A stretch of DNA of 61,045 nt, the filler included, from Dugesia japonica (Eukaryota), in assembly GCA_001938525.1 (NCBI GenBank). It is 6 parts of 6 records of this genome, joined end to end, with 100 filler letters (N's around TTAATTAATTAA, not from the genome) between each part and the next. Parts side by side here need not be neighbours in the genome. Positions count along the whole stretch, not along the records: positions 9,354 to 19,689 come from MQRL01630963.1; 5 more parts are not named here. The stretch is one strand, 5' to 3'. Shown here piece by piece: positions 9,254 through 52,084 of the stretch. Position 1 is the stretch's first letter, and every line of letters starts with the position of its first letter. The translations under genes and the position numbers were made by a program. A model generated the notes under the pieces. The model was given only the letters and a program-made list of their open reading frames with translations, was not told the origin of the DNA and made no database searches.

Positions 9254-9388
9254 NNNNNNNNNNNNNNNNNNNNNNNNNNNNNNNNNNNNNNNNNNNNTTA
9301 ATTAATTAANNNNNNNNNNNNNNNNNNNNNNNNNNNNNNNNNNNNNNNNNNNNCGGGAAGTCGTATCTTTAAAGTTACATGCGAAATA

Positions 9389-11516: not shown

Positions 11517-13459
11517 TACTTCGTTATAGACTACGTTGTGATTAAATTCTTCGTCGTCTTCAGCAACTGACATTACTCGTTTGATTGTAAAATTTTCACT
11601 TTAATATTGTAGCCTTTGCCAGCATGTCAAAAAGGTAACATATATAGCTGGCCTGACCGAATACCATGCCATCTTTGACTTTGGGATTTGATCATGCCAA
11701 TGTAGAACGCTGCAGTCACCGAGAATTGACGTTGTCGCAAGACATATGGCAAGGTAGTGCAAGAATAATTGCAGGAACTGTGACTAAATTACCGCAATTG
11801 CACTAAGAAATAATTCTTGCAGTGATTGTATTTCAAGAAAGATACTCAACCACCAATCGTGTGNAGTTGCATAAACTCTTCTTCAACATCATGATAATAG
11901 TTTCACTCTTAAGCAACAATATTAGTGGAGGCATGCAGGATAGAGTCGATTACGTTAGAAATTCGGTAGTTAAATTCATAGCTGCAACAGAAAGTGGTAT
12001 TTGATCGCGACCTGGCACGATTGACAAAAGTTTCGTATACAAGTAAGTGTCACGGAGCTGTCGTGGTATTTGATATGTAACTGCTTCTATACAACGAACC
12101 AACTCGCTTTTTTGACACACGTAAATGGCAGACAGCTTCAGGAGCTCTTACGTAAAGGCAGTTAAAAAATTAGTGATTTCGTCATACTTAAGCAGCTGCT
12201 TTCCGTCTGATGTAACTGTAATGTTTGCACAGTCGAAGCCTTTAATAATGTACTTGATGACTGACAAAGTCGTGCACATCTCAACGTTTATATGCTCGTT
12301 GTACTTCATCAAGATATAAGGGCTGTACGGTATGGCAGAATGGTTGTCCGTCGATACACCTAGGACTAAAGCTAGTTCACTTTGGTGACGTATGTACACT
12401 GGATAGCCGCAAACATTTGAGATCATCATTTTGTTGAAGTCTTTGAGGAATTTCTTTTAGCAAACACTATTTTCCATGCATAGGAAATGAAAATTATTGA
12501 CGCCGCATGGTCCGAAGGTCTCATTTTTAAAATTTTCTGCTTTCATAAATTTTTTTGATTTTTTTTTAAAATAAATTTCATTGAAAGTTTAAAAATTTTC
12601 ATTAAAACTAGTAAAATTATCTTCATTGAAGTTGGTCATTTTTGAAAACTTTTCTTGGTCAGTTTCTGAATTATTTTTATTAAATTGTTCACATTTTTTA
12701 AAATGGCTAATCATTAATAAATTTTCAATAAAATAAATATAAATATGTATTATTAGTTTTGATCTTTAAAACTTGAGTTCCAAATAGGCCGGGTTTTTTT
12801 CTCTTAATACAATAGAAAATAAATTATTTAAGAGATTGTTTCCACATTAGAAATTTTCCAAATAGGCGGGATTCCACATTAGAGTGTTTTACTATAGTGG
12901 GTTAATAAAGTATAAAAGGCTCAATTTTCATAAAACTTTTTTTAAAAAGAGAACAATTTTGATTCGTTAGTTTGTTTTTCTCTTTGTTTATTTTTATATT
13001 TATCGATATTTTATTTAGTATATGAACAATATGGAGAAAATGAAGAATCTAATAAATGTAACAAAAATGGTTAATTTAAATTTATTTGATAATATTAATT
13101 TATAATTTCAGATTTATGATAATTCTAATGAAAGAAAAAGCAACATGAAGATAAAAAATTCGATTATTGTAAATTTATTATTAGTTAATATTATTATTTC
13201 AGAAATGTGATGATATTAATGTTGTTTCTGATGTTGCTGCAAGATATACAAATGATTATGTTAAGCGTTAGTTTATATTTCGGTAATAATTTTTTGTAAC
13301 TACTTTTCATGATTTTTTTCCGAATATTACTTTATCATAAATTATTATATTAACATATACATTATACTAAAATTATATCTATGTATCATTACAGAACAAT
13401 GTTCATTATACAAATATTATTGCGGAATGAATTAATAGTAAAATAGTAAAATATATTAA

Positions 13460-16155
13460 ATATAGTAAAATATACTATAAATATAGATTCAGTTTGGCAG
13501 GAAATTGCAGATTTGCCAAAGATATATGTTAAAACCATATGTGTTGATAAATGAAGTTTATTCAGTTTAATCGGATTCAAGTAAAGTAATTATTATTTAT
13601 TCGAACGAATTAATTAAGAAAGACGCACCTGATCTGAATAAAGTCGAATTTGAAAAACAAATNATTGATTAAAGAGTTCAAGTGTCGTGTTTACCCCGAC
13701 ATAATTTATTTGAATAAACAAATAATAATGATAAAGAAGATTGTCATAATATTATGGAAAAATATTATGGCATTTTTTATGAGAAAAAGTAATATTTATG
13801 CCCGACATATAGATCTGTAGAAATAGATTGAAATGAAAACTTTTATAGAAAACATAAAAACCATATAGGACAGTTTAAAGTTAATAAAAAATTTAATAAA
13901 ATCTATTATAAAGTGATATAAAGATTTTACAATTGCAATTATTGCGAGAATAATTGTTGGACTTAACCATTGATCGTTTTATAGAATTCATTTAATATAA
14001 AATCTTTGATCAAAATTTAGGTTTTAATTATAAAACCTAATAATTAAAACCTTAATAATTAAAACCTAAATTTTGATCAAAGCTTTTATATTAAATGAAT
14101 GATATAAAGATGTCCAGTAACAAACCAAAGGAAAAATGATTCCATGGATTATGAAGAAATAAATAATGCAGCAACAGAACCTGAGATAAATGATTAAAAC
14201 AATTTTCAAGTAGTAGACAAAATGTATTAAGTCGATCTTAAAATGGAGAATTTAAAGATAAAGATGAAAATATGTTATCCCTTATTAATAATATAGTAAA
14301 TAAAATGGATATTACAAAACTTTATTGATGAAGAGTAAATAATGTTAAATAGTAATATAATGAATGAAATGGATGAAGTTGACGATATATTACAAATTTT
14401 TATGGATAAAGATGAAAAAATGCTTGTCTCTAAATGATGATGTAGTGATTGAAAGGAATCTATATTGATTTAATCAGATACTGAAAATCGATATATCAAG
14501 ATGGAATACAACAGAAATTGTGTTACCAAATTCTTTGATTCAATAATTATTTAAAACAGTAGAGGAATCAAAAATGTTTAAGTATGTTCTGAAAAGCGGA
14601 TTGAAAATTTTTGTTTTGATAGAAAATCTTTTTCGTAAAACTCTTAAATTAAAAGTTTGAATTTGATAAGAAATTAAATTATTAAAAATATGAATAAGAG
14701 ATTAAATTTTTAGAGAAAAATTAAGAAATAGTTTAAGGATTAGTTTAAATATTTCTTTTAGACTTTTTTAAAACGACTATTTATTGTAAAATGTCAAAAA
14801 TATTTTAGGTGAGAAATTTAATAAGAAAAAAAGTATTTTATTTAAAATTTTAATAAATTAAAAAACATTTCTAAATTAACATATAGTTCTAATTGTAATA
14901 GTTGAGAAAATAAAACATAAAAATTGAAATTCCAAAAGCTCCAAATAAGTTAAAACATATCAATTGTAAATTTAAATGTATATAATACTGTAAATTAAAT
15001 GATAAAAATACATAATCAATATGAATAATGAAACAAACAATTGATTCATGATAATAGGGGTGTATTGTTGAAAAAGAGTGTATCTAAAAGAAAAGCATAG
15101 TTTGATAATAAGTATAAATATATAATTTAAAAATAAAGTCTAAACACCAGAAATCATCATAAATAATACGAAATTATTTTTGTAGATGAGGTGATTTTTT
15201 TAATTTATAAAAACTTATTATAAAAACTTTGAATAATTAAATTTAGATGAAATAATTAATTTNNNNNNNNNNNNNNNNNNNNNNNNNNNNNNNNNNNNNN
15301 NNNNNNNNNNNNNNNNNNNNNNNNNNNNNNNNNNNNNNNNNNNNNNNNNNNNNNNNNNNNNNNNNNNNNNNNNNNNNNNNNNNNNNNNNNNNNNNNNNNN
15401 NNNNNNNNNNNNNNNNNNNNNNNNNNNNNNNNNNNNNNNNNNNNNNNNNNNNNNNNNNNNNNNNNNNNNNNNNNNNNNNNNNNNNNNNNNNNNNNNNNNN
15501 NNNNNNNNNNNNNNNNNNNNNNNNNNNNNNNNNNNNNNNNNNNNNNNNNNNNNNNNNNNNNNNNNNNNNNNNNNNNNNNNNNNNNNNNNNNNNNNNNNNN
15601 NNNNNNNNNNNNNNNNNNNNNNNNNNNNNNNNNNNNNNNNNNNNNNNNNNNNNNNNNNNNNNNNNNNNNNNNNNNNNNNNNNNNNNNNNNNNNNNNNNNN
15701 NNNNNNNNNNNNNNNNNNNNNNNNNNNNNNNNNNNNNNNNNNNNNNNNNNNNNNNNNNNNNNNNNNNNNNNNNNNNNNNNNNNNNNNNNNNNNNNNNNNN
15801 NTTTGTAAAAGTCAATATTGAGTATGCAAGTATTTTATTTTTGTTGTAATATTTTTTGTGTGAATTTTGAAAAGTTAATATGTACGTGTGCGTAAAATAT
15901 ACAATAAATATAGATTCATTTTGGCAGGAAATTGCAGATTTGCCGAAGATATATGTTAAAACCATATGTGTTGATAAATGAAGTTTATTCAGTTTAATNG
16001 GATTCAAGTAAAGTAATTATTATTTATTCGAACGAATTAATTAAGAAAGACGCACCTGATCTGAATAAAGTCGAATTTGAAAAACAAATAATTGATTAAA
16101 GAGTTCAAGTGTCGTGTTTACCCCGACATAATTTATTTGAATAAACAAATAATGA
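13460..16155 (+). repeat. ~270-bp near-identical direct repeat (13460-13730 and 15893-16155)
   Basis: Both copies give the same spurious ORF MNPIKLNKLHLSTHMVL. The second copy abuts a gap, so the duplication may be partly an assembly effect. Confidence 0.7.
13927..14102. mobile_element. Penelope-family terminal fragment with inverted junction
   Basis: tttacaattgcaattattgcgagaataattgttggac.. is shared with 24545, 54007 and 59215-59315(rc). 46-bp inverted arms lie at ~13987-14032 and ~14055-14100. Confidence 0.7.
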
Positions 16156-17346
16156 TGGTTAATTTTGTTTTGTGAATAAATTTTTAATGAAACCAAGTAG
16201 TGAATTCAATTCTTTGATGGTTACTTGAACCTCATCCAACAATGTTAACATCCAATTTTGCATTATTGTGGAAACTTTTAAAGATGAAGAAACAAAAACT
16301 TTCAGATTATCCAACCATTTTATCCATTTAAGCGATACCTTTATTAGAAGAAGGAATAGAACTAATAACGAGAAAATTGTTAAACAAAATTGGTTTGAGT
16401 TGGATATTAGAAATAAATTCAAAAATTACCAAAGTATCAGGCATTAGCAGACTTTCCAGTAAAAGCTATATTCCAACGTCTAGCAACCTTTATAATGTTG
16501 GGGTGAAACACCCGTTTCGTAAAGAAAATCAATTTTAGAAAAGATAGAATCGGCATACTTTCTTAACTTTTCATCACTAGAAAGGTTACAAATCGTTATT
16601 TTTATTTACAAATCGTTAACGAAATATAAAGAGGGCAATTCATTGTTTGGAGAAAAATCCATCAGTGCAATCAGAAGATATCATCCTCAACTAATTTGGA
16701 TTCCGCCAGCTTAACTAATTAGGAAAAGAAGAAAATTACAAATCCTCGTTGCAGTAACCCGAATCTCATTACAAAAGTAAAATTTTTAGTTTTATTTTAA
16801 AAATGTGTATTCATAAAATATTTATGCAATAATAAAATTATGAATTATTCTCAATTACCTTATGATCGAATTTTTATGATTTTAAACATAAATAAGAAAA
16901 GATAAATTTATACAATTAATATATTTTCATCTTTAGTAAAAAGAATTCACAGATTACCATGCCAAGTTATCATAAATCCACTACTCAGAAATGCTGTCTG
17001 TCAATGACTCTATCTTCTGCTGAGAAATAATTCCATCGATTAAACGCCTGCCATGAGTTTCCGATCAGTATGCATCAACTGGTAAAATTACAGAACAGCC
17101 ATCGCCGTTAATTTTGAAAACGAGATAATTGTTTGATGTTACAATTACACACATTCTTTGTAAATCCATATTGAGTATTTGAGTTTGAGTAATATTAGGC
17201 ACACGTGGCTTTATCTCTTAAAGTAGGTGTGTGAACCCATCACTCAACACATTTAGTATCGACCGATAGAAGAATTCGTCCCACACTGACTAGAAATTTT
17301 CTTTGAATAAAAATGTTGTGGAATAGATATAACTGATGTTCGTGTC

Positions 17347-17770
17347 TAATGTCCAAACAACACCAAATTTGTCGTAGCTAAAATGACTAACGGATAATGA
17401 TATTACATCAGTACTTGGTCCTTTATACTAGGCTGGGGTTCTCGTAGATCTAGCAAATTTACCAGCAAAAGAAATGTATGGTGATAGGAAATGGAACGCC
17501 GATGAGCGTGTGGCCTATTATGACTGGAATGGCTCCGATCGAACTCGGGCAGTCTACCACGTCGTCTCCACCACTCAATTAGATATGGAGAGCCACAGGC
17601 CGTCCAGGTGTGGCAAGAAGGTCCTTCTATCATTAATCTATCTACTGAACTCTTACCTCCTTTCCCTGAGCTGAGTGCTTTTGTCCTGCATAATTTGTGG
17701 AACATCCGTAACTAGGGTAAAGGCGGTAATTCCGAGAACTTTGATCCCACCCCCACCAATGAGACTTCAT
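17347..17770 (+). pseudogene. LTR-encoded ORF A, decayed copy
   Basis: AGVLVDLANL..DRKWNADERVAYYDWNGSDRTRAVYH..WQEGPSI..LWNIRN*GKGGNSENFDPTP aligns with the intact ORF at 49623-50027. Confidence 0.75.
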
Positions 17771-17937
17771 TATAAATAATTGTTTTTAATTGATGGTTAA
17801 TAAAATTATTCTCACTCTATCTTTACGTTACTGTTGATTTCTATAAACCATTGTAAGGAATAATAATCTTTTAACTATACAATTTGTTGTTTGAATTTTT
17901 AATTTTCCATTTTAAATTGACATCCTCATCTTTGTAG

Positions 17938-18341
17938 TGCATTCATCTCTAAACCGATCTTCAGCACCTACTAAAAAGGTAAGGGAATCAAGCGAAGACC
18001 AGGAAATGACCTGGGACTTATATCGCCTCGCGAAACGCCACTAGGAGGCAGATTTTGCAAACGCTGAAAGCAAAGTGAAACGCTATAAGGCTAAGTTCAT
18101 TGCCTTTCGGAAAGAAACAGAGGCCTCTCACGCTCAGGAGAGACCCTGGAAGGCCCAGTTAAAATCGTTTGCAGAAATCATTCGGTCCCTCCATGACCAT
18201 GAGAATAAACTGATTTCAGACATTTTAGCTCTAAAGAAGGCCATGTCGCTTGAGCCGTTGATAATTGATAAAAATACAAACATCGCGGCCATAATCTTGT
18301 CGGTTGTTTTCACTTGTAAATATAAGTTTCCTTGTTTGTAG
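17938..18341 (+). pseudogene. LTR-encoded ORF/exon B (coiled-coil-like), one in-frame stop
   Basis: After tttgtAG: HSSLNRSSAPTKKVRESSEDQEMTWDLYRLAKRH*EAD...EASHAQER; homologous to 49039-49397. Confidence 0.8.
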
Positions 18342-18442
18342 ATTGATTTGTTTTTTTTTATTTACTTGATACTTATTTTTATTATTCAATTAAATTTAAT
18401 GCACTCAGTCTATCGTTAACCTAATAGTTACTATCTGTTTAG

Positions 18443-18799
18443 GGCCACGGATTCGGTTACCTACCAGCTTGCACCGGTATCATCGTCGTATCCTAAAATT
18501 GCTTCTTAAACGCCATATTAAACGGCAAACTGAAATAGCCTTGTTGCGACACCTGTTGCAAACGTTTAATCAAGAAGCTCGACCATATATTGAAAAAGCA
18601 GGGTGAGGTGGTTGAAAAGACTCAGCAGATACTACAGCATAAGATTGACTTCCTGCAACGTTATAAACCGGACTTATCTAGACACCTAGGGAATGAGTCG
18701 TGGATCCGTTGGAACGACAACGACGATGAAGCCGTCTTCGGTTTTTCAGATGAGGAGCCAACCAATTGGTTAGACCCGAGCGCTCTCGATTATATGTAA
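18443..18799 (+). pseudogene. LTR-encoded ORF/exon C, frameshifted
   Basis: After ctgtttAG: ..LLLKRHIKRQ..LQHKIDFLQRY..WNDNDDEAVFGF..WLDPSALDYM; homologous to the 42.3-42.9 kb and 48.5-48.9 kb copies. Confidence 0.8.
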
Positions 18800-19539
18800 A
18801 TAATTCATAATAAATGTTAAAATTAGTGAATTCTCAATTTCTTTAATAATTACAAAGAAGGGAAAATAATGAACCCAAACCATAGGTATACGAGTGAGTA
18901 CTACAAGCTAACGATGGTAGTCAACTGCTCTATACCGAAGATATAATAAGGGACATTAGATAAATTCTTGAATGGGTCTGATTTTTCCCCAGCCATAATT
19001 TTTCTAACACCAACTCAGGTTGGACCCCAACAATAAGAAAAAAGTAATAATCAATGCTAAGAACAAGGACAATTTATGTATTCTTGTCATTCTCAAAGAA
19101 ATTGAAATTGATAAAAATCATATGAATAATGTAAAAAATTATCCAGAATACATGTCAAAGTTAAATTTTGATAAAAGTGGCATTACAATAAAATTGGCGA
19201 ATACATTATAATTTGTGAAAACAAATCCTTTAGTGTCATTTTTTGAAATCATAATTCAATGATGAAAATGATACTGTTATGAAACATTCAAATCTAGACA
19301 TAATTCTAAAGTAGTTGGTGCTAGGAAAATTTATCTGTTACTATTAAAAAATACCAACAAATTTGGTTACACCACAGTAATAAATTTAAACTAATAAATC
19401 GAGATGTGAAAAAAGATAGTGGGCGAATTCGATCAACGTGGTGTTCTAATTATCTTAATGGATTCCGAGATAATATCGCTTATAATACACATGGACCAAT
19501 GTGATAAAATTCAGACGGGCATCACATAATAAACTATGC

Positions 19540-19690
19540 CAGGGTTCGGCAACCTATGGCACGCGTGCCAAAAGTGAGTCGCAAAGCAAATCTTTTAAAA
19601 GTTAATTAAAATTTATAATTTTTGCAAAACATTGTAATATTTGTAGAAAATATGATTTTTTTAATATTGAAATCGATATTAATTGTGTGN
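19540..19690 (+). mobile_element. hAT-superfamily transposon left end
   Basis: CAGGGTTCGGCAACCTATGGCACGCGTGCC is a typical hAT (Charlie/Buster-like) terminus; truncated by a gap. Confidence 0.6.
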
Positions 19691-19847
19691 NNNNNNNNNN
19701 NNNNNNNNNNNNNNNNNNNNNNNNNNNNNNNNNTTAATTAATTAANNNNNNNNNNNNNNNNNNNNNNNNNNNNNNNNNNNNNNNNNNNNATATAGATAAA
19801 TTTAGTGGAATATATTAATGGTATTATTGACGAGAATTTACATTAAG

Positions 19848-23179: not shown

Positions 23180-24523
23180 CTATTTGCCAGTCATATTAAA
23201 CATTTCGTAAACCAAATTAAACATTTTATCAACTATAACAGTATGGTTTTTTCTAATCCAACACACAAACTTTCAGTTAAGTTTGTCGAGTTTTAATAAG
23301 ATATGTGTAGATTTTAAAAATCACTGTTTGAATGTTTATGATCAAATTTTCCCGCGCTTTTTAAATGAGTTTATTTGGTCCTTATGGAATGATCAGATCA
23401 ATGAAACAGTAACAACGACACTAAAAATTATTAAAGAATATCTAATGGAAACCGATATAGGTTGATCAGGTTGGTTAAGAAAGAAGGTAAAACTATTGCA
23501 AAGGCTGCTGAAATATTGCAAATTAATCATAGCTTGGCTCGAGTTATAACCAGTAAATTAAAAGAAATTGATATGATTAATTTGCACAAAACTGATGGGA
23601 GCAGAAGAACAGTGCGAAATGACAGTGTTAAATTGCAGATCAAAGCAGCAGTATCTGCTAATCCAGAAATTACTCTCAAAGAAATTCAATTATATTTTAG
23701 ACACGTTTTTGGAGAGAACTACAATATTTCACATTCAACAATAAATTGGTGTCCTGCGGATCTTCAAATTACAATGAAGCAATCACACCGTGAGCTTGAT
23801 CGTCTAAACTCAGAAGATGAAACCCAGCAAAGGCGGGAATATGCTCTCTAGTTTAACACATATTTTCAAAATGACTTTTCAAATGCTATCTTTGAAGATA
23901 AGTCTTCATTCAATCGTCATTTAAAAAAAATCAAAATTGCGATCAAAAGTTGAAACGTGTGCTATTGTAACTATACCAATTGTAAGGGAAAGTCCGTTAC
24001 TTTACTTGTAAGCTTATAAATTAACAGTTTTGTCTATTGTAAAACAATTTCTAATTCAACAGTAAATGCTTCAGTTTTTCTCAGTACCTTTAACAAATTA
24101 TGTGTATATCTAAGAGATGAACTTCATATGAAAAATTCTTGTTTAATATTGGATAACGCACGCATTCATAGGAGAGATTATCTTGGAAAAATTTTATCCC
24201 AATTTAATTTTCAATTTAAATTTCTGTTGCCTTACTCATACATGCTCAATTATATTGAAAATGCGTTTTCAAAAATAAAGATGGGTATAAAATCAAAGCT
24301 AAGATTAGGAGCAATTGGCATACTTTCGGAGTTGATGTCGGAAGAGGCTAGGAATGTTACTTCAATCGATAGTGTTGGTTATTTAAGATATATTCTTTGC
24401 AACATAACTAAATGCACAGATGGTCTTTCTTAGGTCATCAATAAATAGTGCATTTTTATTTAAGTTAAGTTCATTAAGTCAATATATAATTTTTTTGTAA
24501 TTTTTAATATGACTGGCAAAAAA
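23180..24523 (+). mobile_element. IS630/Tc1-like DNA transposon with disrupted transposase
   Basis: TIR core TTTGCCAGTCATATTAAA at both ends, TA-flanked. HTH ORF at 23462-23851; catalytic LILDNARIH..LPYSYMLNYIENAFSKIK at 24128-24433. Confidence 0.88.
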
Positions 24524-28030: not shown

Positions 28031-29286
28031 TTAGGTTGATGGAATATAAATGCAGGTTTTTAATTATTTGTATTTTGCTCAAGTTTAGATCAATAAATTA
28101 ATAAGTTTAAATCAATAAGTTATTTATCATTTGTAATCTTATCTTATGCTCTTTCTAAATATTTATTTAAAATTTATAGTAATTTTGTTTTCTGTCTATA
28201 ATTTGGTTTTTATTCATATTTGTTGAAACGCGATTTCTACAATATTTTCTTCTATGAGTTGAAGCTAGGACGTAATGCCGCTCAAACCACTCAAAACATC
28301 CACGAAGATTTTGGGCGAGTCAAGTATCAAGAAATGTACGGTGCAACGTTGGTATCAGAAGTTTCGTTCTAACAATACCAGCCTCGATGATGAGCCTCAT
28401 GCCAGACATCCATCAGCCATTGATGATGAGAAATTGAAGCAGTTAATCAAAGCTGATTGTCGGAAAACTACATAAAAAGTTGCTGAAGAGGTCTGTACGT
28501 TTACCAATCAACCGTGGTTTGTCATTTAAAGGAAATTGAAAAAACAAAAAAGCTCGATAAGTGGATGACACACGCATTGACCAAACAGCACAAAATCGTC
28601 GTTTTGAAGTTGCATCTTCGCTCGTTTTGCTCAACAAAACCATCCTTTTCTGGAACAATTTATAACGTGCGAAAAAAAGTGGATTCTCTACGACAACTGG
28701 CGACGTTTGGCGCAGTGGTTGAACCGCGATCAACAACCACAACACTTTCCAAAGTCAGAATTTCACCAAAAAAGGGCTATGGGGATTGTTTGGTGGTCTG
28801 CAGCCAGTTTTATTCATCACAGCTTCCTGAATCCGAGCAAAATGATTACAGCCAAAAAATAATGTCAACAAATTGACGAACAGCACCAGAAACTTTAACA
28901 TATGTGTCCAGGATTGAACAATTTTTCTCCATGACAACGCTCTGCCGCACGTCACAGAAGTTGCACGAATTAGACTACGAGACTCTGCCTCATCCTCCAT
29001 ATTTTTCGGACATCTCGCCCCCTGATGTTCACTTTTTCAAGCATCTGGACAACTTTCTCCAAGAAAAAGGTTTCAAAAACCAAGACGATGCTAAAAACGT
29101 CTTTGCCAACGTCATCACCATCAGAACTTTAGATTTCTATACCGGTATAAATAAACTTGTTTCACGTTGGCAAAAATGCGTTGATTCTAGTGGTTTTTAT
29201 TTCGATTAATAAACTTGTTTATAAGCTGAGGTGTACTAATTTAAAGTTGAGATTTAAAAACCTGCATTTGTATTTCATCAACCCAA
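28031..29286 (+). mobile_element. mariner (DD34D) transposon, ~1.26 kb, frameshifted
   Basis: TIRs TTAGGTTGATGGAATATAAATGCAGGTTTTT / AAAAACCTGCATTTGTATTTCATCAACCCAA with TA TSD. Motifs TVQRWYQKFR..LDDEPHARHP, KKLDKW, HPPYFSDISPPDVHFF and RWQKCVDSSGFYFD. Confidence 0.95.
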
Positions 29287-31970: not shown

Positions 31971-32428
31971 AGTAGATAGATATGAGCCAGGGCCCCTCGA
32001 GGGGGGGACCCCCACCCCCCGATTTTTTGCCCGCCTACTTTTTGGACTACGCCCCTTTTTGGACTCCGCACCCTTTTTATCTTTTGGACTCCGCCCCTTT
32101 TTATCTTTTTCTCCGCCCACTTTTTTGGACCCCCCTTTTTATCCTTTTCTCCACCCACTTTTTTGGCCACGCCCACTTTTTTATCTTTTTCTCCGCCCAC
32201 TTTTTTGGCCACGCCACTTTTTATCTTTTCTCCGCCCACTTTTTTTGGCCACGCCCACTTTTTTATCTTTTTCTCCGCCCACCTTTTTGGACACGCCCAC
32301 TTTTTTGGCCACGCCCACTTTTTTATCTTTTTCTCCGCCCACTTTTATTGGCCACGCCCACTTTTTTGGCCACGCCCACTTTTTGATGACTCATATTTTT
32401 TTCAAAAAATTTTCTATGTCAGAACAAA
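31971..32428 (+). mobile_element. probable Polinton terminal segment (AGTAGATA start, GC-box tandem repeats) inserted into the Gypsy integrase
   Basis: The integrase frame breaks abruptly at AGTAGATAGAT, followed by a hairpin cccctcgagggg and tandem ttttttggccacgcccac / tatcttttctccgcccac units. The family assignment is inferred from the AG terminus. Confidence 0.5.
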
Positions 32429-32528
32429 NNNNNNNNNNNNNNNNNNNNNNNNNNNNNNNNNNNNNNNNNNNNTTAATTAATTAANNNNNNNNNNNNNNNN
32501 NNNNNNNNNNNNNNNNNNNNNNNNNNNN

Positions 32529-33345
32529 TGCTGGTCGTATGATTTCGGACCTGATCTTATCGTTTCCTTGAAATTATCTATCCTATCCTTTAGATTACCC
32601 TCCTTTGGGGCTTGATCGATAGGTGCTATAGCTCGTTGTCCTTGGTATTCATTGAACATTGCTTCTTTTAGGTGAGGTAACTAACAGTCCTGGTGATCTA
32701 CTTTGTGTGTCAATGTTGATGTACCTGTATTACATGATCCATCTGCTGCTTTGCAGTATGACCTTCCTTTCATTGTTAGATCCTGGGCATCAAAAAATGC
32801 TTCATATTCTTTGAGTTCTACTGTATAAGTTTCGATTGCCACTGCATACGTCCATACCTTTCCTCGTATAGTGTATGTACCATATTCACAGTTACCTTTG
32901 TGTGAGGATATGCTTCCTGCTGCTTATATCGGTTGATCAATTACATGCTCTTTCTTGGCAATAACTTGAGTCCCATGTTTGATGGTAATTTTACCTGTCG
33001 TAAATCCTTCGTCCCATTGTTGTCCTGTTAGATGTACAGTCTGTCTCACTGTTCCTGGATCAATTATCGAAGTATAACTGTGATAACCACAATGAAATAT
33101 AAACGTCTTTACTGTTACTGTACATTCGCGTACTTGGACCTTATAATAATCGGACTCCTGGTACAAGTGGTAAATAGAATTATTATGGAGTGAGATTTTC
33201 TCCGGGTTTGCGTCTGGACATTCTTCTGTATCCACTAATGAGAATACTTCCTTCCCAACTTGCAATTCATCGCAATTGTATGCTAATAGGGCTTCACTTC
33301 TGCCCATCATTAAGAATAACAAGAGTATTGTAGTGGTTAACGCTT
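32529..33345 (-). pseudogene. env: envelope glycoprotein, chuvirus-G-like, N-terminal part with signal peptide; two in-frame stops; truncated by gap
   Basis: ALTTTILLLFLMMGRSEA|LLAYNC..FSLVDTEEC..LYQ..VQVRECTV..FHCGYHSYTS; past the stop it continues in frame as AAGSI..GNCEYGTY..W..AVAIE..YCKAADGSC. The cysteine and motif spacing match chuviral glycoproteins. Confidence 0.8.
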
Positions 33346-33449
33346 GCCATGAATTTCGGCGAGGCCCACGTGTCCAGCCATTCTCAATCTCATTTAACTG
33401 ATCCCGAACAATCCTAGTTGCATTTTCATGAGATGGCTGAGGCTTAGGG

Positions 33450-33850
33450 CATATGGCCTCAATAAACTTTTTCCATCCCCCATGCTGCTTTATCAACGGC
33501 ATTATCTTGTTCTGCATGAGCTCCACTATTGGTAGTTTACTGAGAATGAAGTTTTTTGACGGTTTGCTTCTAGCGATTGATAGGTGTTTTTGATTAATTA
33601 GATGCGCTATAGATACTACTATCCTTCCCTTTGTAGTCTGATCTTGTAATAACTCATCTATTACTCCTTCTAAATAGTCTCTTGTGCCATGACTAGTACC
33701 TTTAGTGGCGGGAAATTTCTTAATGGCTGCTTCTATTTCTTTTACCAGTGGTTTGAGACTATCAGATAGTTGAAATTTCCCAATCCATATCTTTAATTCT
33801 GGATAAAGCATTAGCAATAGTTGCGGTATTACTACTTCAGTTGGCATGTC
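33450..33850 (-). CDS. Bcl-2-like domain within the polyprotein ORF 32924-34801
   Basis: BH1-like YLEGVIDELLQDQTTKGRIVV, BH2-like NKIMPLIKQHGGWKKFIE, and an upstream amphipathic BH3-position helix LSDSLKPLVKEIE, in the correct order and spacing. Confidence 0.72.
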
Positions 33851-34569
33851 ATCATATATCTTTTTGATATCTTTTTGCGATATCGTTGCTAATCGCTTAG
33901 TTTGGTGAGTTATTGATGTTGTTAATCGTTTTTGTTTCAATGCTTCCTCCTCCCCCGGATTTCCTGGGTGTTTCGTTCTTGGTCTGCTTCTATTGCGAGG
34001 TTCAATAATAGTTTCTGCATCTACTCGGGTGCGCACTGGTTTTGGTGGCGCTTCTTCCTCTTCTGTTTCAATTGGATTTTCCATTTCTAGGGGGTGGTTT
34101 GTATCCATTAAATCATCCATTACCGAGGATGGCAATTCCTTTGCTATCCTACTTAATATTGGTGATAATGGTTGTTCCTCTAATACATCTTCCTCGTCTA
34201 GGTCTACCTTGCTAGGATCATATTTCTTGCTTCTAGTTGGCTCTTTGACTTTCATTTCCTCACTTTTTCTAGTTGGAGGTGAGTATCTTGTGATCTGCAA
34301 TTCATTCTCATCTTCTGTTAACTCGTCTGCTGATGGAGATCCGAATATTTCACGTTCCCAATCTTTGTTTGTTTTAGGAGTTTCCTTTGTTTCTCGAGAC
34401 GCTTCTGTACTTCCGGATTGATCTGTTGTAGGTCTTAATATTTGACTAGCCGCTAATTGTGTACGGAGTTTATATGCTTTTAACATACCTGAGGTCTCTC
34501 CCATTATTGATCTTGTTTTGTCTGCTGCCTTATAAGGGTCTGCGTCTTTTCGAGTGAGAGTACATCCTA

Positions 34570-35045
34570 ATTCTGGAAAAATCCACAACGTATTAGGTTT
34601 AACTAAATCTATTTTCATTAGTCCAATCGGGGTGGTATCTTCCACTATTCCATCTTCATCCAAGAGTTTGTGTGGTGGCTTAAATGGTAACTTGTCTCGT
34701 AGGTGCTTTACCATATTGTATACTGGTATCTTTATCGTGATTTTATCTCCCTCTGGATCAATTGTTCGGAATTTGACTTTTAATGGAGTGGTCTGTCCCA
34801 TCTCTGCTTTCTGGCAACCTCATTTGGTCTAGTTCTATTACTTGGTTATAATAGAGTACTATGTCGTCTTCCTGCAATAATGTTTGCATTCCGGTTTCCC
34901 CCTCGTCAAGGCTACGCTGTTGATTCATAAATTTTATAATCCTTTTCCGCAACTTAGCCCATGGTTCATTCATTTGGACCTGCCAACGAATTTCACTTTC
35001 ATCTGAAAATTTGATTATTACGGCCACGGCTTCATTAGTTATCAT
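34570..35045 (-). pseudogene. two tandem SUMO/ubiquitin-like domains (frameshift near 34820)
   Basis: VIIKFSDESEIRWQVQMNEPWAKLRKR..IVLYYNQ.IELDQ..CQKAEM is SUMO/Rad60-like. EGDKITIKIPVYNMVKHLRDKL..LLDEDGIVEDTTPI is Ub-like. Confidence 0.55.
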
Positions 35046-38829: not shown

Positions 38830-40240
38830 TGCACTTTGTGGTACACATTGTCAAAAGTACTTTGATGCACTAAATTGACTTGTCCCTTGTTTTGATTTAC
38901 TAGTTGTCTTAATCTCTCATTTTCCTGCATTAGATTATCCAGATTTGTATTCGGATTCCGATTATAATTTGTTTGGTTACGTTCTGACATTCTTTTGCCA
39001 TATGCCCTCTTCTGTTACACTTGTAACAGACCGTTGGATTTTTCAAAAAACACGTTTCTATGTTGTGGTTGGTTCTCTTGCAATAAGTAAAAAATCGGTT
39101 GTTGTTATTATTATTGCCTCTACTTCTACAATCTCGCGCAATATGCCCCTTTCTTTCACAGGAATTGCATTGCATATCTCGATTATTTTGCCAGTTATTC
39201 CGAGGTGCATTAAATCCTCCACCATTTCCTCTGGGATAGTTAGGTCTATCATTCCGGTTATTCCGTTCCTGCCCTGGGGTCAGGGTTTTCATCATTGATT
39301 GCGTATTGGGTATGAAATCTGATATCCGTGTAGTTTCCTCTGTCTGTCCTTCTACTTTGAATATTCGTTCTGACGGTCTATCTGCTACAATTCGCAATGT
39401 TGCCAGAGCGTCTTGTAGAGTCACTGGCTTACTCAATTTTACCATTAGTTTGGTGTTCTCGTCACATAATCCGTTCAAAAAGATGGCGAGTACTTGACTG
39501 TCTTCCAGCTTGTCTCCTAAGGCTAATTTCCCACGCCTTTTGAGTTCCATCATATACGCTTGTGGAGTTTCTCCTCTTTGTTGTTTTCGATTGGTAAATT
39601 GTTTGAAATCCTGGCCAGTCAATTTTAAATTTTGGAAATTATCGGTTAGTATTTTCACAACCTCTTCCCATTTGTCGGGAATGGCTTCCATGCCCTTAGT
39701 GTGATCCCAGAACACCGTTTTGGCTACTCCGGTCAAGTAAGCTGGCAATCGCTTCCTTTTTGCTTCCTCGTCCCATCCACAGGTTTTGGCATACATTTCG
39801 TAATTTTGGATAAGTTCATCCAACTTTTCTGGTATTCCGCTAAAATATTCGCCATCGAATTTTATTTTCCACTCCGGTTGATGGTTTTCGGTTTTGGTTG
39901 TCATGTTGTTGTCCTTTGCTGTGTTGGTTTCTATTTTCGGGTTTTCAGTTATAGCTGGGGTGGTTTTGTTTNNNNNNNNNNNNNNNNNNNNNNNNNNNNN
40001 NNNGGTGCTTCCTTGGTTACTACCTATTATCTCTGTCTCTTCTGAGGTATAACTTAGTTCGCTTAGTCGGTTTTTATCCGTAGGTGGATTATTATGGGTT
40101 CGCTTCTGGATTATTTGATTTTCTTTGTCACTTGGGCTACTATTTGAACTGATGGCTTCTAATGTTTTGGTTTTGGATAGCGAAGTTGATTTGTCGAATT
40201 CTGATTTCTTGAACGAACAAATATTCTCTTCCTGGTCCAA
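38830..40240 (-). CDS. gag: retrotransposon Gag (capsid and zinc knuckles), frameshift near the 3' end
   Basis: FSG..LDELIQNYE..GWDEEAK..LPAYLTGVA..W; RKQQRGETPQAY; CNSCERKGHIARDC and CYKCNRRGHMAKEC, plus a degenerate middle knuckle. It continues in frame 38709-38990, and decayed coding sequence extends upstream to ~40450. Confidence 0.93.
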
Positions 40241-41007
40241 ATAAAATGACGATTTCTTGAATTTCCTTGATTACCTTTGTCGGTTAAGTTGGGCTTCTTT
40301 TAGAGTTGAGCTTGGGGTAGATATTCCGGATGTAATAGACCTTGCAAGTGGTTTTCTATTTTCCGAGTCGGAATCTATTTTGTCAGAGTTCAGCTTGTTG
40401 AGTGCTTACTGTATTTCGGTTTTGGTTTTGTAATACTTGTAGTTTAACTTTCTAGAATAAAATTTACTTTTAATTGTCTTTATTTAGGAGACAATCACTC
40501 CTCTTCTTGATTTTAAACTTTCTTTAATATCATGCTGCTCTACGCTTGTCATCATAGCCCCATAATCATCTTCCTTAAATTTTTTCCTTTTTTTCCTTAA
40601 TTAAGTCTTCCTTCAATCTTCCTGTAATGCTTCCTTTATTTCTTCCTAATTAACGCCAGGTTATCTCTTCCTAAATGTGGGAGTACCCATTTTTCTGTAG
40701 TATCGGCGAACTCTTCTGGCTTTCTTTCTTTTCTTCCTTTTAATATGCCGGGGTAACAGTGCACACTTTTCCTAAATTTATGGGGGAGTACCGAGATTTT
40801 TCTGAGGGATCGGCGGCCCCGTTTGGAGTACCCTTTTCGTGCAGGCGAACGCTTNNNNNNNNNNNNNNNNNNNNNNNNNNNNNNNNNNNNNNNNNNNNNN
40901 NNNNGGGATCGGCGGCCCCGTTTGGAGTACCCTTTTCGTGCAGGCGAACGCTTCCGGCTTCTCTTCCTTTAATGCTTCTTCTAATCAAGCTTCCTTTAGT
41001 GTGCTTA

Positions 41008-41285
41008 ACTACGTGGCCTTCCTTTAACATACTGGTTAATGTACTTAGGACTACACGTATCTTCCTTCCTTGCGTAGACTTCCTTTAAATTCTTCCGAGG
41101 TTTTCCCTCCCATACGCAGGCTTCCTTAATTATGCTTCCTTATTTTCCTACGTGGTCTCCCGTTAATATACTGGTTAATGTACTTAGGGCTTCGCGAAGT
41201 CGTCCTTTAATTTGCTTCCTTCCTACGTGGTATCCCGTTCACATACTGGTTAATGTACTTAGGGCTTCGCGTAGCCTTCTTTTAA
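41008..41285. repeat. three ~65-bp tandem-like repeats in the element leader
   Basis: ctacgtgg..atactggttaatgtacttagg at ~41010, 41150 and 41223; on the minus strand these read (E/V)(A/V)LSTLTS.L..(D/G/Y)HV. Confidence 0.7.
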
Positions 41286-41931
41286 TATATGCGCATCACA
41301 TATCTGGTAATACCCAATTACTTCTTCAGTTATAGTCATTAGACAACTGTTGCGGTTGCTTTCTACAAAGGTGATCAATCTTCTGATTGCAACTTACCAG
41401 TTGGGGATCGCTATTTTCCATAACTGTGTCTGTAATAAATATGACTGGATATTCTTCCTATAATCTTCCTGAAGTTTTTTTCAAGATTAGCTTCCTTAAA
41501 TTTCTTCCTGATTAACATCCTTAAATTTATCTTCCTTTATTTTCCTTTAATTTATTTTCCTTTAATTTATCTTCCTTTACTGTGCTCCTGGTTACGTTTC
41601 CATGGTGACTTCCGTGGATATCTCGACATGATCTCTGAAAATATAAAATTACAAGTTTTATTGATTTTACTTCCTGATTTTACCTGTTTTGTTATTATTC
41701 TTATTCCTTTTTATTTACTAACTCCTTATAATCGTCTTAATTTCATATCATCCTTAACTTCCTATTTTCATAATCTGCTATTTTCATAAGTGATTACATA
41801 ATTTTATAATTTCGATATTTTATTTATTTTCATCATTTATTTAATCATTTTACTAATAATATTACACATAATAATAATCTTTATGCTCTTATTTCCCTAT
41901 TCTTACGGGGTTTTATTTCCTGAAAATTTTA

Positions 41932-41954
41932 TTCAAATCCCGGCTGAGCCCCCA
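41932..41954 (-). promoter_or_regulatory. primer-binding site, tRNA-Pro
   Basis: Minus strand TGGGGGCTCAGCCGGGATTTGAA is complementary to a tRNA-Pro 3' end (..TTCAAATCCCGGNNGAGCCCCCA) and lies 7 nt from the LTR end. Confidence 0.88.
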
Positions 41955-41961: not shown

Positions 41962-43368
41962 TGTTGGGGTCCCACCTGAGTTGGATGAAGAAAAGTGTGG
42001 CTGGAGAAAAACAGCCCTCAGGGGAACCCTTTCAAGAATTTGACCTAACGCCCCTAGGTTAAGTATTCAGCATATGGCGGTTGACCTCTCTCTTAATGGG
42101 AGGTGCGCGCCCATAGGCCTTTGAATTTGGGTTCACNNNNNNNNNNNNNNNNNNNNNNNNNNNNNNNNNNNNNNNNNNNNNNNNNNCCTTTGAATTTGGG
42201 TTCACTCTTTTCCCTGTTCCCACGGCTTCATCAAAGATTAGAACGAATTGAACAATAAAACTTTATTTTAAATGAAAATTAGATAAGATCCAAAGCGCCT
42301 GGATCTAACCACTGGGCTATATCGGTCGTCAAAATGTTGAACGCCGCCGAATCATCATTGTCGTCCTATTGGACCCCTGTAGGGTTTCCTAGTTGGCGGG
42401 AAAGGTCGGATATATATTGTTTGAGGAAATCGATTTTCCTCTGCAATAGCATTTTATTTTCATTTTCTAACGCTTTTGTCTACACCGCCAAGTCCTTCTG
42501 CTTTTTCACAATCTGATCACGTTTTTTGATCAGACGATCTTGCTGGTCTGAATGCTTAATCAATGCTCTATCCGCTTTCTGCTTTAAGTGGCGCTCTAAG
42601 AGTAGACGGCGCATTATGCNNNNNNNNNNNNNNNNNNNNNNNNNNNNNNNNNNNNNNNNNNNNNNNNNNTAGTTGGCGGGATAGGTCAAATATATATTGT
42701 CCTCTGCAACAGCATTTTATTTTCATTTTCTAACGTCTTTGTCAGCACCGCCAAGTCATTCTGCTTTTTCACAATCTGATCAAGTTTTTTGATCAGACAA
42801 TCTCGCAGGTCTAAATGCTTAATCAATGCTCTATCTGCTTTCTGCTTTACGTGGCGCTCTAAGAGTAGACAGCGCATTATGCGATGGCACCTTCGCAGAC
42901 TGTTTGGAAAATTAATGCGTGTCACTAAAAGAAGATATATCATTAAATTATTTCTGTAAAACAGACAAAAGATAATCAAGTGAATAATTCAGAAGGAAGA
43001 ATGTAGGTATAAAAAACGTTTATTTGTAAATTTACAAGTATCAAGGACGCGAGGTCTGGCTACCCTTGTTGACCATTAATGGTTCGAGGGGCATAGCAGC
43101 TTTTAATCGATGGACGTCCTGTACCAATTGGTTTTCGCGGTCTTNNNNNNNNNNNNNNNNNNNNNNNNNNNNNNNNNNNNNNNNNNNNTTAATTAATTAA
43201 NNNNNNNNNNNNNNNNNNNNNNNNNNNNNNNNNNNNNNNNNNNNCCAGATTTAAATTCATCGCGGAGTTTTACCAGGTCAATTACCCTAGACTTAATTTT
43301 ATATAAAGTTCGACCCCCTAGATTTAAATCATACCAGAATTCAACCCACCTAAGGTAAAACCCCAACA
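41962..43368 (-). repeat. 5' LTR of the giant element (true length unknown; spans a scaffold linker)
   Basis: On the minus strand it starts TGTTGGGGT at 43368 and ends ACCCCAACA at 41962. It contains ORF C (42279-42924) and the tail of ORF B (43041-43144). Confidence 0.8.
42279..42924 (-). pseudogene. LTR-encoded ORF/exon C in the 5' LTR (partly duplicated across a gap)
   Basis: After cttttAG: TRINFPNSLRRCHRIMR.LLLERH.KQKADRALIKH..WLDPGALDLI*. Confidence 0.75.
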
Positions 43369-43384
43369 TTATTATTAATATTAA

Positions 43385-48515: not shown

Positions 48516-48898
48516 TTAAAGCAGATCCAAGGCTCCTGGATCAAGCCACTGGTCAGGGGACGTTATTTCAAAATTGAATGCAGCGATGTCCTCATCGTTG
48601 TCCCACTGCATGGTGTTGGGGTTGCCAATCTGCCTCGATAAGTCCGCAATATATTGTTTTAGGAATTCTATTTTTCGCTGTAGTAATTGTTTATTCTCTG
48701 CTTCCAATGCCTTTGTCTGGATGGCAAGGTCATTTTGCTTTTATACTATAGCGTCCAATCTTTTAATTAGCTTATCTCGTTGGTCTAAATGTCGTAAGAG
48801 GGCCTGGTTGGTTTTTCGTTTCAGGTGCCTCTCTATCAGCAGACGGCGCAGTAGGTGGTGGCATCTACGAAGATTGTTTGAGAAATGGATACGAGTCA
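48516..48898 (-). pseudogene. LTR-encoded ORF/exon C, one in-frame stop
   Basis: After ttgttttAG: TRIHFSNNLRRCHHLLRRLLIERHLKRK..(TAA at 48741)..LLQRKIEFLKQYIADLSRQIGNP..WLDPGALDLL. Confidence 0.8.
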
Positions 48899-49038: not shown

Positions 49039-49397
49039 TTAATTCTTAGGGGTTTGGGTGCTTTTCTCAACCATTAAAGGTTCTAGTGGCATGGACGCCT
49101 TCAGCTTCAGAACATCACCTACCAGTTTATTTTCTCGGTCTTGGTAGGACCGGATCATCTCAACCAAGGACTCTACCTGCCCCTTCCACACTCTCTCTTG
49201 TGCATGGGAGGCCTCGACTTCCTTTCGGAAAGCCACACATTTTTTTCGGTATCGGCTTACTTTACTATTGGCGTTGGCTGTATCCGCATCCCACTTACGC
49301 TTGGCGAGACGATACAGGTCCCACGTCATCTCGCGGTCCTCGCTGTCATCACGCATTTTTTTCGTCGGAGCCGAACTTCGATTTAACGATGAGTGCA
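49039..49397 (-). CDS. LTR-encoded ORF/exon B, intact, coiled-coil-like
   Basis: A 119-aa open frame that starts at an AG|TG junction rather than an ATG; homologous to 17938-18341; AATAAA downstream. Confidence 0.8.
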
Positions 49398-49622: not shown

Positions 49623-50027
49623 TCAAGGAGTGGGGTCTGTGTTTTCTAAAGCGCCACCACTGGCCTGATTTCGCAGTTCCCATAGAGTATTACCAAGATC
49701 TAATGAAAATCTAGTACCTCGAGGAAGGTGGGCAATCGACACAGGTAACAAAGACGGCCCATTTTGCCATTGATTAAATGTCTGATTTGTTACTGGATCA
49801 AAAAGGGGGGTTCGGTGCATAACTTCTTGGGTGCGATCGGGACCGACCCATTCAAAGAAAGCTTGGCGCTCTGCAGCCGCCCATTCTCTTTCGTTATCCC
49901 CATCTTCCTGGGTTAAGTTGGAATAATCCGCCAGGATACCCGCATTTCGGTCATGTGGGTTTTTGTATCGTTTAAAAATGGTACGCCCTGTGCGACGATC
50001 CCATAGTAGCTCCCATTTATGTTCCAT
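49623..50027 (-). CDS. LTR-encoded ORF A, intact, 134 aa, unknown function
   Basis: ATG-initiated ORF preceded by an acceptor-like taatgtAG; conserved at protein level with 17347-17770. Confidence 0.78.
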   Translation of the reverse strand: MEHKWELLWDRRTGRTIFKRYKNPHDRNAGILADYSNLTQEDGDNEREWAAAERQAFFEWVGPDRTQEVMHRTPLFDPVTNQTFNQWQNGPSLLPVSIAHLPRGTRFSLDLGNTLWELRNQASGGALENTDPTP

Positions 50028-52084
50028 ATTTGTTTGTTTATTTCCTACATTAATAGTTAATAAAATTTCTTTTATTTAATTAGGTTGAAGTACATTTAGG
50101 TAATTAAATAGTGATATTTTAGAAAACGTAAATTATGATAAAACACGGGTTTTCATTTATAAACGAAGCATAGCATCACTATTAGTCTAACCAATCTCTA
50201 CTAAAAGAAATTCATCATAAATTCAGATACAGTGGTTATTCTTCAGCGATCTCCACAATAGATTCTAGGGGGAACATCTCAACGAAACACTGAAGGTCTG
50301 TCTCGTCGGGATGTTCCACCCGGCCTTTGGTTNNNNNNNNNNNNNNNNNNNNNNNNNNNNNNNNNNNNNNNNNNNNNNNNNNCGGATTGGCGTTGTTTTC
50401 TTATTTTTCGTAAAGTATCACGCAATACTGCTGGCATTATCTAAGGAAACAAAAAAATATAACAATAACATCGTTAAAACCATCTTGCTATTCGTTTACC
50501 CGATAATTTAATGTTATTGTACTATAAATACGAGGTTGAGACGCTTCCTTACACTCAAAGATAAATTGTTAAATAAAATCCTATTTTAGAATCCCTTTTG
50601 GTGTAGCACCACCTGGTTCTTTAAAATATCATGATTGAACTAATGGACGCCTCTATTACTCAGATACTGAATCATTAACGAGTTATGGACCACATAGGGT
50701 TGAGATTAATCATAACAGTATTTGAATAACTATGCTGGTAAATAGAGAATTAATTCAATGATCGGTGGAATTCCTCTACAGACTTATTTATTTCAGTCCT
50801 TGTCAGTTACAAAATCTACTTTTACTGATGACAAAAATCCAAGGGTGACTTCAATGACATAAATCTTACTGCGGTTCATAATACATAAAACTACGGCTAG
50901 CCCTTTCTAAACAAAAATAAAACAAAGGTGGTCCTACTGACCAAGGTTTTTATTTTCTAAATTACTTTATTTCATAAAAAATTTTAGTGCAGGAATCCTA
51001 GTTTTTGTCAACACAAGATAATAATTGATTCAAATCAATGTGGGTTTAAATTGATATTATTTGATAATACCGAGGCCAGTAAAACTACTCCACACTCTTA
51101 TTAATATTACTGTCCGTAATTATCGCAAAGGTAACCACAATAGAGACAATAACACTCCTCATAATCATACCGCTAAGGCCGGTATTAGCTGATAAGTCTA
51201 ACACCGACAACAACGATACTCATGATGATGAGATCAATTACCCGACTATGGTTATACTTGGACCAACTAACAGCTCGATATAAGTACTGACAACAGGATA
51301 TTAAGATAAATTGGAATTTCTTATTATAATAATAATATAGCAATAAAATATTATGGAAGGAAAATCAGGCCTTGGTTAAAAAATTTGTTTTTTATATTTC
51401 TGCTCAAACCGGATGCTTGGCAATTTAGTTACTCTTCTCTTCTCGTTTGCAGATACACACTGACGAGTTAGGTGGATTGCACAACTGTAGCCATGCATAC
51501 TCCGCTGGTGGTATGCAAACCATCGATTGATAAATTCGATAACAGATTTATGTAAATCCTTATGTGGACTATACAATAATATAGACATGCAGCAGAACAT
51601 GAAATAGTTTCATATTAGACAAGGAAAGTCTAATGCAATTCTCAATCTGGTGTAAACACGGGAATTCACAGAAAAATATAGTGAATTGATGATCGGCTGC
51701 CTATGGAAAATAATTGAATGATCGAACCCAATCCTTTCACAAGCCAAGCGCATCCACTATTACCGATCTTATCATTTCTCAGCANNNNNNNNNNNNNNNN
51801 NNNNNNNNNNNNNNNNNNNNNNNNNNNNTTAATTAATTAANNNNNNNNNNNNNNNNNNNNNNNNNNNNNNNNNNNNNNNNNNNNAAAAAATGAAATCATT
51901 TAAAAATAAAATATTTTCTTAAATACTTAAGAAATATAAATGATGTAATAATATATAATAACATCACCTTTTTTATCAAGAAAAATGAATTATAAATAAA
52001 TATTTTTGTAATCAGAAGTTTATTCTTTAAATGAATTTAAAATTTACAATGTAAGTTACTTATACACAAGGTTTGAAGTATCGA

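Follow-up and report, generated by a model that had tools for sequence, protein, structure and literature searches.

A decayed solo long terminal repeat of Dugesia japonica contains three exon-like genes apparently under selection between lineages of a Burro-like element

In a window of 61,045 nucleotides from the planarian Dugesia japonica (assembly GCA_001938525.1; "window" always means this whole stretch) we identified positions 16496–19032 as a decayed solo long terminal repeat (LTR), and within it three genes, A, B and C, which to judge from their sequences are exons rather than free open reading frames (ORFs) and are under purifying selection between lineages of the element. The parent element is likely a gag-env Ty3/gypsy element of the Burro type. 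As to how this cassette works, we lean towards the reading that A, B and C are alternative last exons lying in U3 (the unique 3' part of the LTR), spliced singly from a donor in the leader of the element and encoding small regulatory proteins. The window consists of six pieces joined by five linkers of 100 N (9254–9353, 19690–19789, 32429–32528, 43145–43244 and 51785–51884), across which adjacency is unproven; the coordinates of the features are collected in Table 1. The first-pass annotation of this DNA had read the unit as an LTR-borne gene cassette that every solo LTR disperses in potentially expressible form. Its first half stands: we are dealing with an LTR, which encloses all three genes, and these were selected between lineages. 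The idea of every solo LTR as an expressible cassette is not supported.

The unit begins with TGTTGGGGT (16496–16504) and ends with the reverse complement of TGTTGGGGT (19024–19032), which gives it TG...CA termini with short inverted repeats. Chance would supply the matching 9-mer about 0.005 times in 5 kb, and the probability of the matching 4-mer is about 0.015. One contig of run X20 departs from the window at 16495, and its eight loose letters equal positions 19037–19044, so that it represents the empty site; two more contigs of this run link the left to the right flank (16311 to 19078 and 16315 to 19079). A decayed reading frame of the flanking high-copy repeat, which we take to resemble a Polinton-type ORF, is in register across a single copy of ATAA (16000–16495 plus 19033–19210), and a Pfam search with three flank peptides gave no significant match. 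An internal direct repeat of the ends is absent from the unit. Because of the inverted ends, the ATAA duplication, the empty-site contigs, the flanking frame in register and the absence of an internal end repeat, we conclude that 16496–19032 is one precise insertion; a solo LTR with 9-bp terminal inverted repeats and an ATAA target-site duplication, as first annotated, is thereby confirmed from the sequence and from the empty-site and flank-joining contigs alike. As a separate observation, ATAA precedes both LTR starts in the window (16492–16495 and 43369–43372, the latter in a TAA microsatellite), and a target preference is possible.

The genes recur at two other places. By tblastn, A, B and C are found in the same order at 50.0–48.5 kb (copy 2; E 2e-7, 1e-45 and 6e-16), and the tail of B together with C at 43.1–42.3 kb, in a 5' LTR (copy 3; E 8e-4 and 1e-15), both as the first-pass annotation had reported. 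It had also described A, B and C as ORFs, and here only the location inside the LTR holds, none of them being an open frame in the solo copy. The conserved blocks of its exon A (17432–17560 and 17596–17754) lie in different frames, with stops at 17429 and 17713, and with stops or frameshifts in A, B and C alike this copy is dead. Stops also interrupt C of copy 3 (42482 and 42368). In the window, open frames remain only for A and B in copy 2, and C is broken in all three copies (3/3). Copy 3 has two versions of exon C, about 92% alike, on either side of a gap of 50 N (42928–42282, minus strand), by tandem duplication or by assembly overlap of two copies. A further X20 contig, otherwise identical to the solo locus, is without 17746–18441 (696 bases, comprising the end of A and all of B) and has four other letters at the joint. 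We considered this joint (17745 to 18442) as a splice and rejected it, since it is not GT-AG, has the four extra letters and comes from a DNA-like run. It is probably a deletion allele, consistent with ongoing neutral decay, although the skip lands one base before exon C, close to the acceptor.

The ends of copy 2 are lost in gaps. Upstream of its A, copy 2 has a fourth conserved coding stretch, Z, of which an N gap leaves the 3' part and which has no match in the solo LTR. The region further upstream (50383–51784, minus strand) alternates AT-rich and richer stretches in the manner of the cassette, and as far as the end of the contig it has diverged relatives in X1, X5 and X6. Since these relatives reach the contig end, the LTR of the copy 2 lineage may be longer than 3.4 kb.

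Selection was assessed as pN/pS, the ratio of nonsynonymous to synonymous differences per site, by Nei-Gojobori counts over protein-guided codon pairs; pS is saturated (0.8–0.9), which makes dS inestimable. The ratio is 0.23 (0.16–0.33) for B over 114 ungapped codons, 0.47 (0.36–0.60) for A over 96 codons, and 0.39, 0.25 and 0.25 for C. Protein-guided alignment lowers the ratio where gaps are placed, from which the ungapped B is exempt. Controls in shifted frames over the same columns gave 0.7–2.4 with many stops, save one control of the short B tail at 0.49. In exon-wide comparisons, identity is 0.30–0.45 at third against 0.67–0.83 at second codon positions. The exons align with z 5.6–24 against shuffles, whereas three of the four inter-ORF or upstream spacers involving the solo copy align no better than shuffles (z -0.4, 0.0 and 1.0); the fourth, the B–C spacer compared with copy 2, reaches z 2.5, and the spacer between copies 3 and 2 is again no better than shuffles (z 1.2). 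The earlier proposal that the proteins stay alignable and the spacers do not, implying purifying selection, agrees with these figures (exons z 5.6–24, four of five spacers at shuffle level, pN/pS 0.2–0.5), and the dN/dS check suggested with it, carried out as pN/pS on the copies within the window, gave values well under 1 rather than near 1 for all three genes.

The boundaries of the conserved regions suggest how they are expressed. Conservation of B begins 23 codons ahead of MTWDLY, right behind an AG, so that MTWDLY is not the beginning of B. Its first 14 codons lie upstream of any ATG and are identical in protein (14/14) at 43% third-position identity. At the AG, identity rises from 7/36 bases upstream to 26/36 downstream in B, and from 13/36 to 26/36 in C of copies 2 and 3. 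Each of the six readable starts follows a YAG in phase 1 (6/6; solo A, whose frame shifts soon after its ATG, is excluded from this count). TG stands directly past the AG in 4/5 copies of B and C, and an in-frame stop with no in-frame ATG just upstream of the acceptor in 4/5 as well. Because of the phase-1 YAG at all six starts and the lack of a usable ATG before the conserved N-termini of B and C, A, B and C appear to be exons and not free ORFs, and the start codon of B and C is likely made by splicing, an A from the donor being joined to the TG; a short N-terminal peptide exon fits the counts at the B and C starts as well. AATAAA follows C in 3/3 copies, B in 2/3 and A in 1/2, single cases being possibly due to chance in the AT-rich spacers.

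The same features bear on the alternative that no cis-splicing to a donor of the element takes place, and that the genes use spliced-leader trans-splicing or internal ATGs, or form one multi-exon A-B-C gene, which we consider very unlikely. In its favour, free-living flatworms are reported to use trans-splicing (PMC12582326), an ATG is present in A, and B has a conserved internal one at MTWDLY. However, flatworm leaders end in AUG according to the part of that article on parasitic species, for which it was shown, and would thus impose phase 0, out of frame with phase-1 exons. Internal starts are excluded for the full proteins, given that codons of B are conserved upstream of the ATG and C is without an early ATG. 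Each exon has its own stop, and no GT[AG]AG donor is common to the exon ends.

The affiliation of the LTR follows from its 3' end. Its last 170 bases align to 42135–41962 on the minus strand (z 14.5 against 200 shuffles), and beyond this homologous LTR end come a primer-binding-site-like motif (41932–41954), presumably resembling a tRNA-Pro primer site, and then gag; no tRNA gene is present in the window. The leader between them contains a 67-nt repeat in three copies (40990–41290). An ORF further downstream of gag encodes a fusion glycoprotein (PF24664, E 2e-19). Its Bcl-2-like stretch gave a Pfam Bcl-2 match below the cut-off (E 0.0066), and 52/53 weak Protein Data Bank (PDB) matches are Bcl-xL or Bcl-2 chains (E 0.3–2). 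The contig ends within env at 32529 and does not contain pol; a C-rich tandem array occupies 31982–32407 in the next contig. The five ORFs between gag and env have no Pfam or PDB match to MATH, BIR, ankyrin or SUMO-like domains.

In their order, a Gag with three knuckles, a BCL2-like motif (a weak candidate here) and a mononegavirus-like fusion glycoprotein are shared with Burro/GYPSM1 (PMC6431247, in its account of this element), the internal part of which measures up to 25 kb out of more than 30 kb in total, implying LTRs of a few kb, as here; its SUMO-like motif was found by HHpred only. That account mentions no LTR-borne ORFs, in contrast to the LTR with A, B and C reported here. Platyhelminthes errantiviruses of the GAG-ENV-POL HSV/gB type (PMC13524379) also have env after gag, and the env rows of Smed_errantivirus_1 and Smed_errantivirus_2 resemble the env found here by eye. 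For its six Schmidtea elements the table in the supplement of that article lists neither LTR nor primer site, the word 'accessory' does not occur in its main text, and the passages concerned mention no LTR genes, unlike the present case. Since pol and the MATH, BIR, ankyrin and SUMO-like domains were not seen, we regard the parent as Burro-like rather than as a member of a named family.

Could the unit be something other than a single LTR, namely an element with short LTRs that has suffered an internal deletion, or pieces of host genes that were captured and now drift within a repeat? No paired LTRs are seen and both ends of copy 2 are missing, which leaves some room for it. Against it stand the absence of an internal direct repeat of the ends, the position of B and C directly upstream of an LTR end that precedes a primer site and gag, the selection between element lineages and the failure to find a host homologue (in libraries with few flatworm proteins), and we think this explanation extremely unlikely.

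For the first 880 bases of the solo LTR there is no match in the putative start of copy 3, and none upstream of copy 2, where the score of 142 compares with a mean of 135 for shuffles. Because the sole conserved non-coding block lies at the 3' end past the last AATAAA, the 5' part is unmatched and the number of genes varies on the 5' side, where copy 2 has at least one extra (Z), the comparison favours a long, variable U3 that would hold the cassette and be read from the 3' LTR of full-length elements. In such elements a full-length transcript would reach the 3' LTR, the leader donor would be joined to the acceptor of A, B or C, one at a time, and the polyadenylation signal behind the chosen exon would end the message. 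The donor would give the A of the ATG for B and C, and exon A would use its own ATG 2–6 codons in. B, with a basic stretch and a zipper-like helix, and C, with a basic part, heptads and an acidic tail, could then serve as coiled-coil regulators of element transcription or of host factors. That B and C would need an upstream donor, and that the conserved block is confined to the last 170 bases, agrees with a cassette in U3, which the promoter of a solo LTR could not read. Solo LTRs, being without the donor and the upstream promoter, would decay, or act as splice or poly(A) traps once in a host intron. Expression from intact solo LTRs seems to us rather unlikely, and the claim that every solo LTR disperses an expressible cassette is not supported by this copy, where A, B and C are broken, A has zero depth, no joint was seen and B and C would need the upstream donor.

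A different arrangement, with a long R (repeat) region, would place the promoter near the 5' end of the LTR and a short leader exon with an A-ending donor inside it, so that any intact LTR, even a solo one, would produce spliced messages for A, B and C by itself; we hold this to be possible, if clearly short of probable. At 16777 a GTAAAAT with A in front of it leads into a stretch very rich in AT, a TATA-like motif stands 63 bases into the putative LTR start of copy 3, and diverged relatives of B and Z occur in oligo-dT RNA reads (see below). On the other hand, there are eight donor-like sites in the first 883 bases of the solo LTR, which makes one of them unremarkable, and a stricter TATA scan found none in the first 880 bases of the solo LTR. 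The 5' part of the LTR is dissimilar between lineages while the 3' block is similar, and three acceptors, each with its poly(A) signals, would stand in the way of the genomic RNA at its 5' end.

Raw RNA runs were mapped to 15900–19600 (X21, X22 and X23) and to copy 2 (X22), reading 6–26% of each run; in all, seven out of 24 available runs were mapped. The solo region collected 7, 148 and 121 reads from X21, X22 and X23, mostly in the flanking repeats, and 0, 3 and 9 of these are at least 95% alike. Over the solo cassette the three runs gave zero depth on A, at most 3.9 on B and no splice joint within the LTR, so that the RNA mapping proposed in the first-pass annotation provides no sign of transcripts from it. 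Copy 2 collected 51 reads from X22, in both mate directions and without a joint; they cluster on Z and the core of B, and not one of them is 95% alike or more. Depth over Z is raised in all four runs mapped there, among them oligo-dT reads that stem from diverged copies. Oligo-dT RNA thus contains diverged relatives of B and Z at a low level, and the solo copy and copy 2 show no sign of expression in the reads examined. Runs X5 and X6 have high depth on exons and low depth on spacers, which we did not accept as expression, as they are possibly DNA and X1 has the same pattern.

Searches with the proteins were restricted to proteins of near-equal length, in libraries with few flatworm proteins. 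They gave 7 candidates for A, 1 for B and 617 for C, none of them significant (for B, none at E 0.001). A profile of B run against 1.84 billion representatives had one match (E 2e-6). This protein of 1197 aa, which has long coiled coils as well as Ig and cohesin domains of bacterial type, was rejected as a generic coiled-coil match. Scans for related loci with B found nothing in metagenome or viral contigs, the B and C profiles do not match each other, and Rfam has no match (0). ESM Atlas gave top scores of 0.79 for A and 0.92 for B, the latter to unnamed clusters with low recognition, and both serve as leads only. B is modelled as one helix (residues 18–102; mean predicted local distance difference test, pLDDT, 80.6), with a basic stretch (net +6 at 41–60) and heptads in residues 75–102. 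C has a basic N-terminal part, heptads and an acidic tail that ends in the conserved WLDPxALD. The model of A is unusable (pLDDT 42.6), and a pairing prediction for B with the C-terminal half of C scored 0.00, which is evidence neither way. Of the structure prediction and remote homology searches that had been suggested, then, the former yielded a helix for B and nothing for A, and the latter no homologue for A, B or C. The 3' block of the LTR folds with mild stability (z -2.5 and -2.2 against single-base shuffles), and the folds are not clearly common to the copies.

Several observations weigh against the interpretation of A, B and C as alternative last exons in U3 that encode regulators. Identity in A shows no immediate rise past the AG (9/36 before, 8/36 after), the shared phase counts as no more than three independent observations, which chance would yield in about 1 case in 9, and an in-frame ATG stands shortly before the acceptor of C in copy 3. 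No donor was shown to be conserved, and an A-ending donor is unremarkable, as A precedes 9/17 GT[AG]A[GAT] sites of the leader. No splice joint was found at any acceptor in three raw runs for the solo copy and one for copy 2, read to 6–26% with a depth of 0–6 over the cassette. Neither pol nor a complete element flanked by two LTRs was seen in the window, and the LTR start of copy 3 used in the 5' comparison lies across a linker gap. As to the proteins, B and C have no Pfam match to the basic leucine zipper (bZIP) family, with weak generic coiled-coil matches only, and the helix model of B has no PDB match (0). That B and C may be coiled-coil regulators is suggested by their composition, one helix model and an analogy to the accessory genes of complex retroviruses.

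Table 1. Features of the solo LTR, of the related copies and of the parent-type element (positions in the window)
Feature	Position	Strand	Basis
Target-site duplication, left, ATAA	16492..16495	+	sequence; empty-site contig
Solo LTR, 2537 bp, 9-bp inverted termini, within high-copy repeat	16496..19032	+	sequence; empty-site contig; 3'-end homology to LTR end at 41962
Candidate splice donor in LTR, A before, AT-rich stretch after; needed only with a promoter near the LTR 5' end	16777..16783	+	motif scan, GC profile
Solo exon A, broken; YAG before 17378, ATG at 17383	17378..17775	+	
Solo exon B, broken (premature stop 18042–18044); phase-1 YAG then TG	17938..18341	+	
Solo exon C, broken (frameshift between 18555 and 18563); phase-1 YAG; 7 codons short of copy 2	18443..18799	+	
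AATAAA, likely polyadenylation signal, 9 nt past solo C stop (copy 2, 14 nt; copy 3, 11 nt)	18809..18814	+	
Non-coding 3' block kept between lineages, likely R-U5 cis element	18865..19032	+	z 14.5 vs shuffles; alignment
Target-site duplication, right, ATAA	19033..19036	+	sequence
ORF with Bcl-2-like stretch (33760–33380), then Monjiviricetes-type fusion glycoprotein	32924..34801	-	Pfam
gag	38930..39904	-	Pfam zf-CCHC (E 1e-8) and, below cut-off, Retrotrans_gag (E 0.004); by eye, three motifs resembling knuckles
Leader (~2 kb) with three GTAAG donor-like sites (41906, 41397, 40409); A before 40409 only	40403..41906	-	
Primer-binding-site-like motif, 7 nt past LTR end	41932..41954	-	sequence
Copy 3, 3' part of 5' LTR: B tail (43144–43038), C (from 42924)	41962..43144	-	tblastn
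Possible copy 3 LTR start (TGTTGGGGT after ATAA, TAA microsatellite); beyond 100-N linker, link unproven	43245..43368	-	
Copy 2 exon C, premature stop 48743; phase-1 YAG then TG; first in-frame ATG is codon 96	48516..48898	-	
Copy 2 exon B, open; phase-1 YAG then TG	49039..49397	-	
Copy 2 exon A, 134-aa open frame from ATG 50027 (6th codon past phase-1 YAG)	49623..50044	-	
Z, fourth coding stretch, 3' part, upstream of copy 2 A; cut by N gap	50236..50331	-	

Elsewhere in the window, ORF fragments that we take to be like Helitron, Tc1/mariner and integrase remnants lie at 12148–12429, 23573–24433, 28931–29209, 30999–31553 and 57808–58095; the two integrase-like ones had no significant Pfam match. 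Each of the 100-N linkers carries a central 12-mer with stops in six frames.

Lentiviral nef and foamy-virus bel/tas are accessory genes that overlap U3. In mouse mammary tumour virus (MMTV), sag lies in U3 and is made from a spliced mRNA (PMC9147501, in its passages on sag). Sag overlaps the U3 of an LTR of unusual length; likewise, A, B and C are coding regions inside an LTR that appear to be under selection, and their origin from spliced mRNA would be a further likeness. Sag, however, is one gene of a retrovirus, as those passages present it, whereas here three or more exons with their own acceptors lie wholly inside a Ty3/gypsy LTR, and no sequence relationship of sag to A, B or C was found. 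A splice-made start codon is known for env of Drosophila errantiviruses of the springer subclade, where it is formed with a donor in the leader (bioRxiv 10.1101/2023.08.03.551782, section on env). In that case AU is joined to G at a single env acceptor; the present genes would join A to TG, at several acceptors, and are small, non-env and inside the LTR. MDG1 elements have small selected accessory ORFs, sORF1 and sORF2, in a Ty3/gypsy element, and a short, alternatively polyadenylated sORF1 message (PMC11952523, section on these ORFs). As described there, these differ in lying between LTR and gag and in being unspliced and expressed, whereas A, B and C lie inside the LTR and are known from sequence alone. 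In the literature searched we found no description of genes inside the LTRs of Burro or other Ty3/gypsy elements; Grohme 2018 and Repbase may bear on this point. Thus U3 accessory genes, splice-made starts and small ORFs are each known separately, and what we regard as new is that a Ty3/gypsy LTR should enclose an entire accessory cassette of several exons under selection.

A more far-reaching proposal, which we consider unlikely, is that Burro-type LTRs keep expandable arrays of alternative last exons (A-B-C on the 3' side, extras on the 5' side) with splice-made starts and zipper-type regulators, and that intact solo LTRs express this array by themselves, so that the numerous LTR copies would make up a dispersed regulatory gene family, acting on both element and host. 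Ty3/gypsy LTRs are treated as non-coding and masked in annotation. Elements of this kind are derepressed tissue by tissue on loss of PIWI in planarians (PMC8532177, in its results on such elements). If A, B and C are indeed alternative last exons in U3, then planarians harbour, at very high abundance, an element family with spliced accessory genes like those of complex retroviruses wholly within its LTR, and the cassette would account for the length of this LTR and for its variation between lineages. Solo LTRs would in that case be splice and poly(A) traps, and one would expect few of them in host introns in sense orientation.

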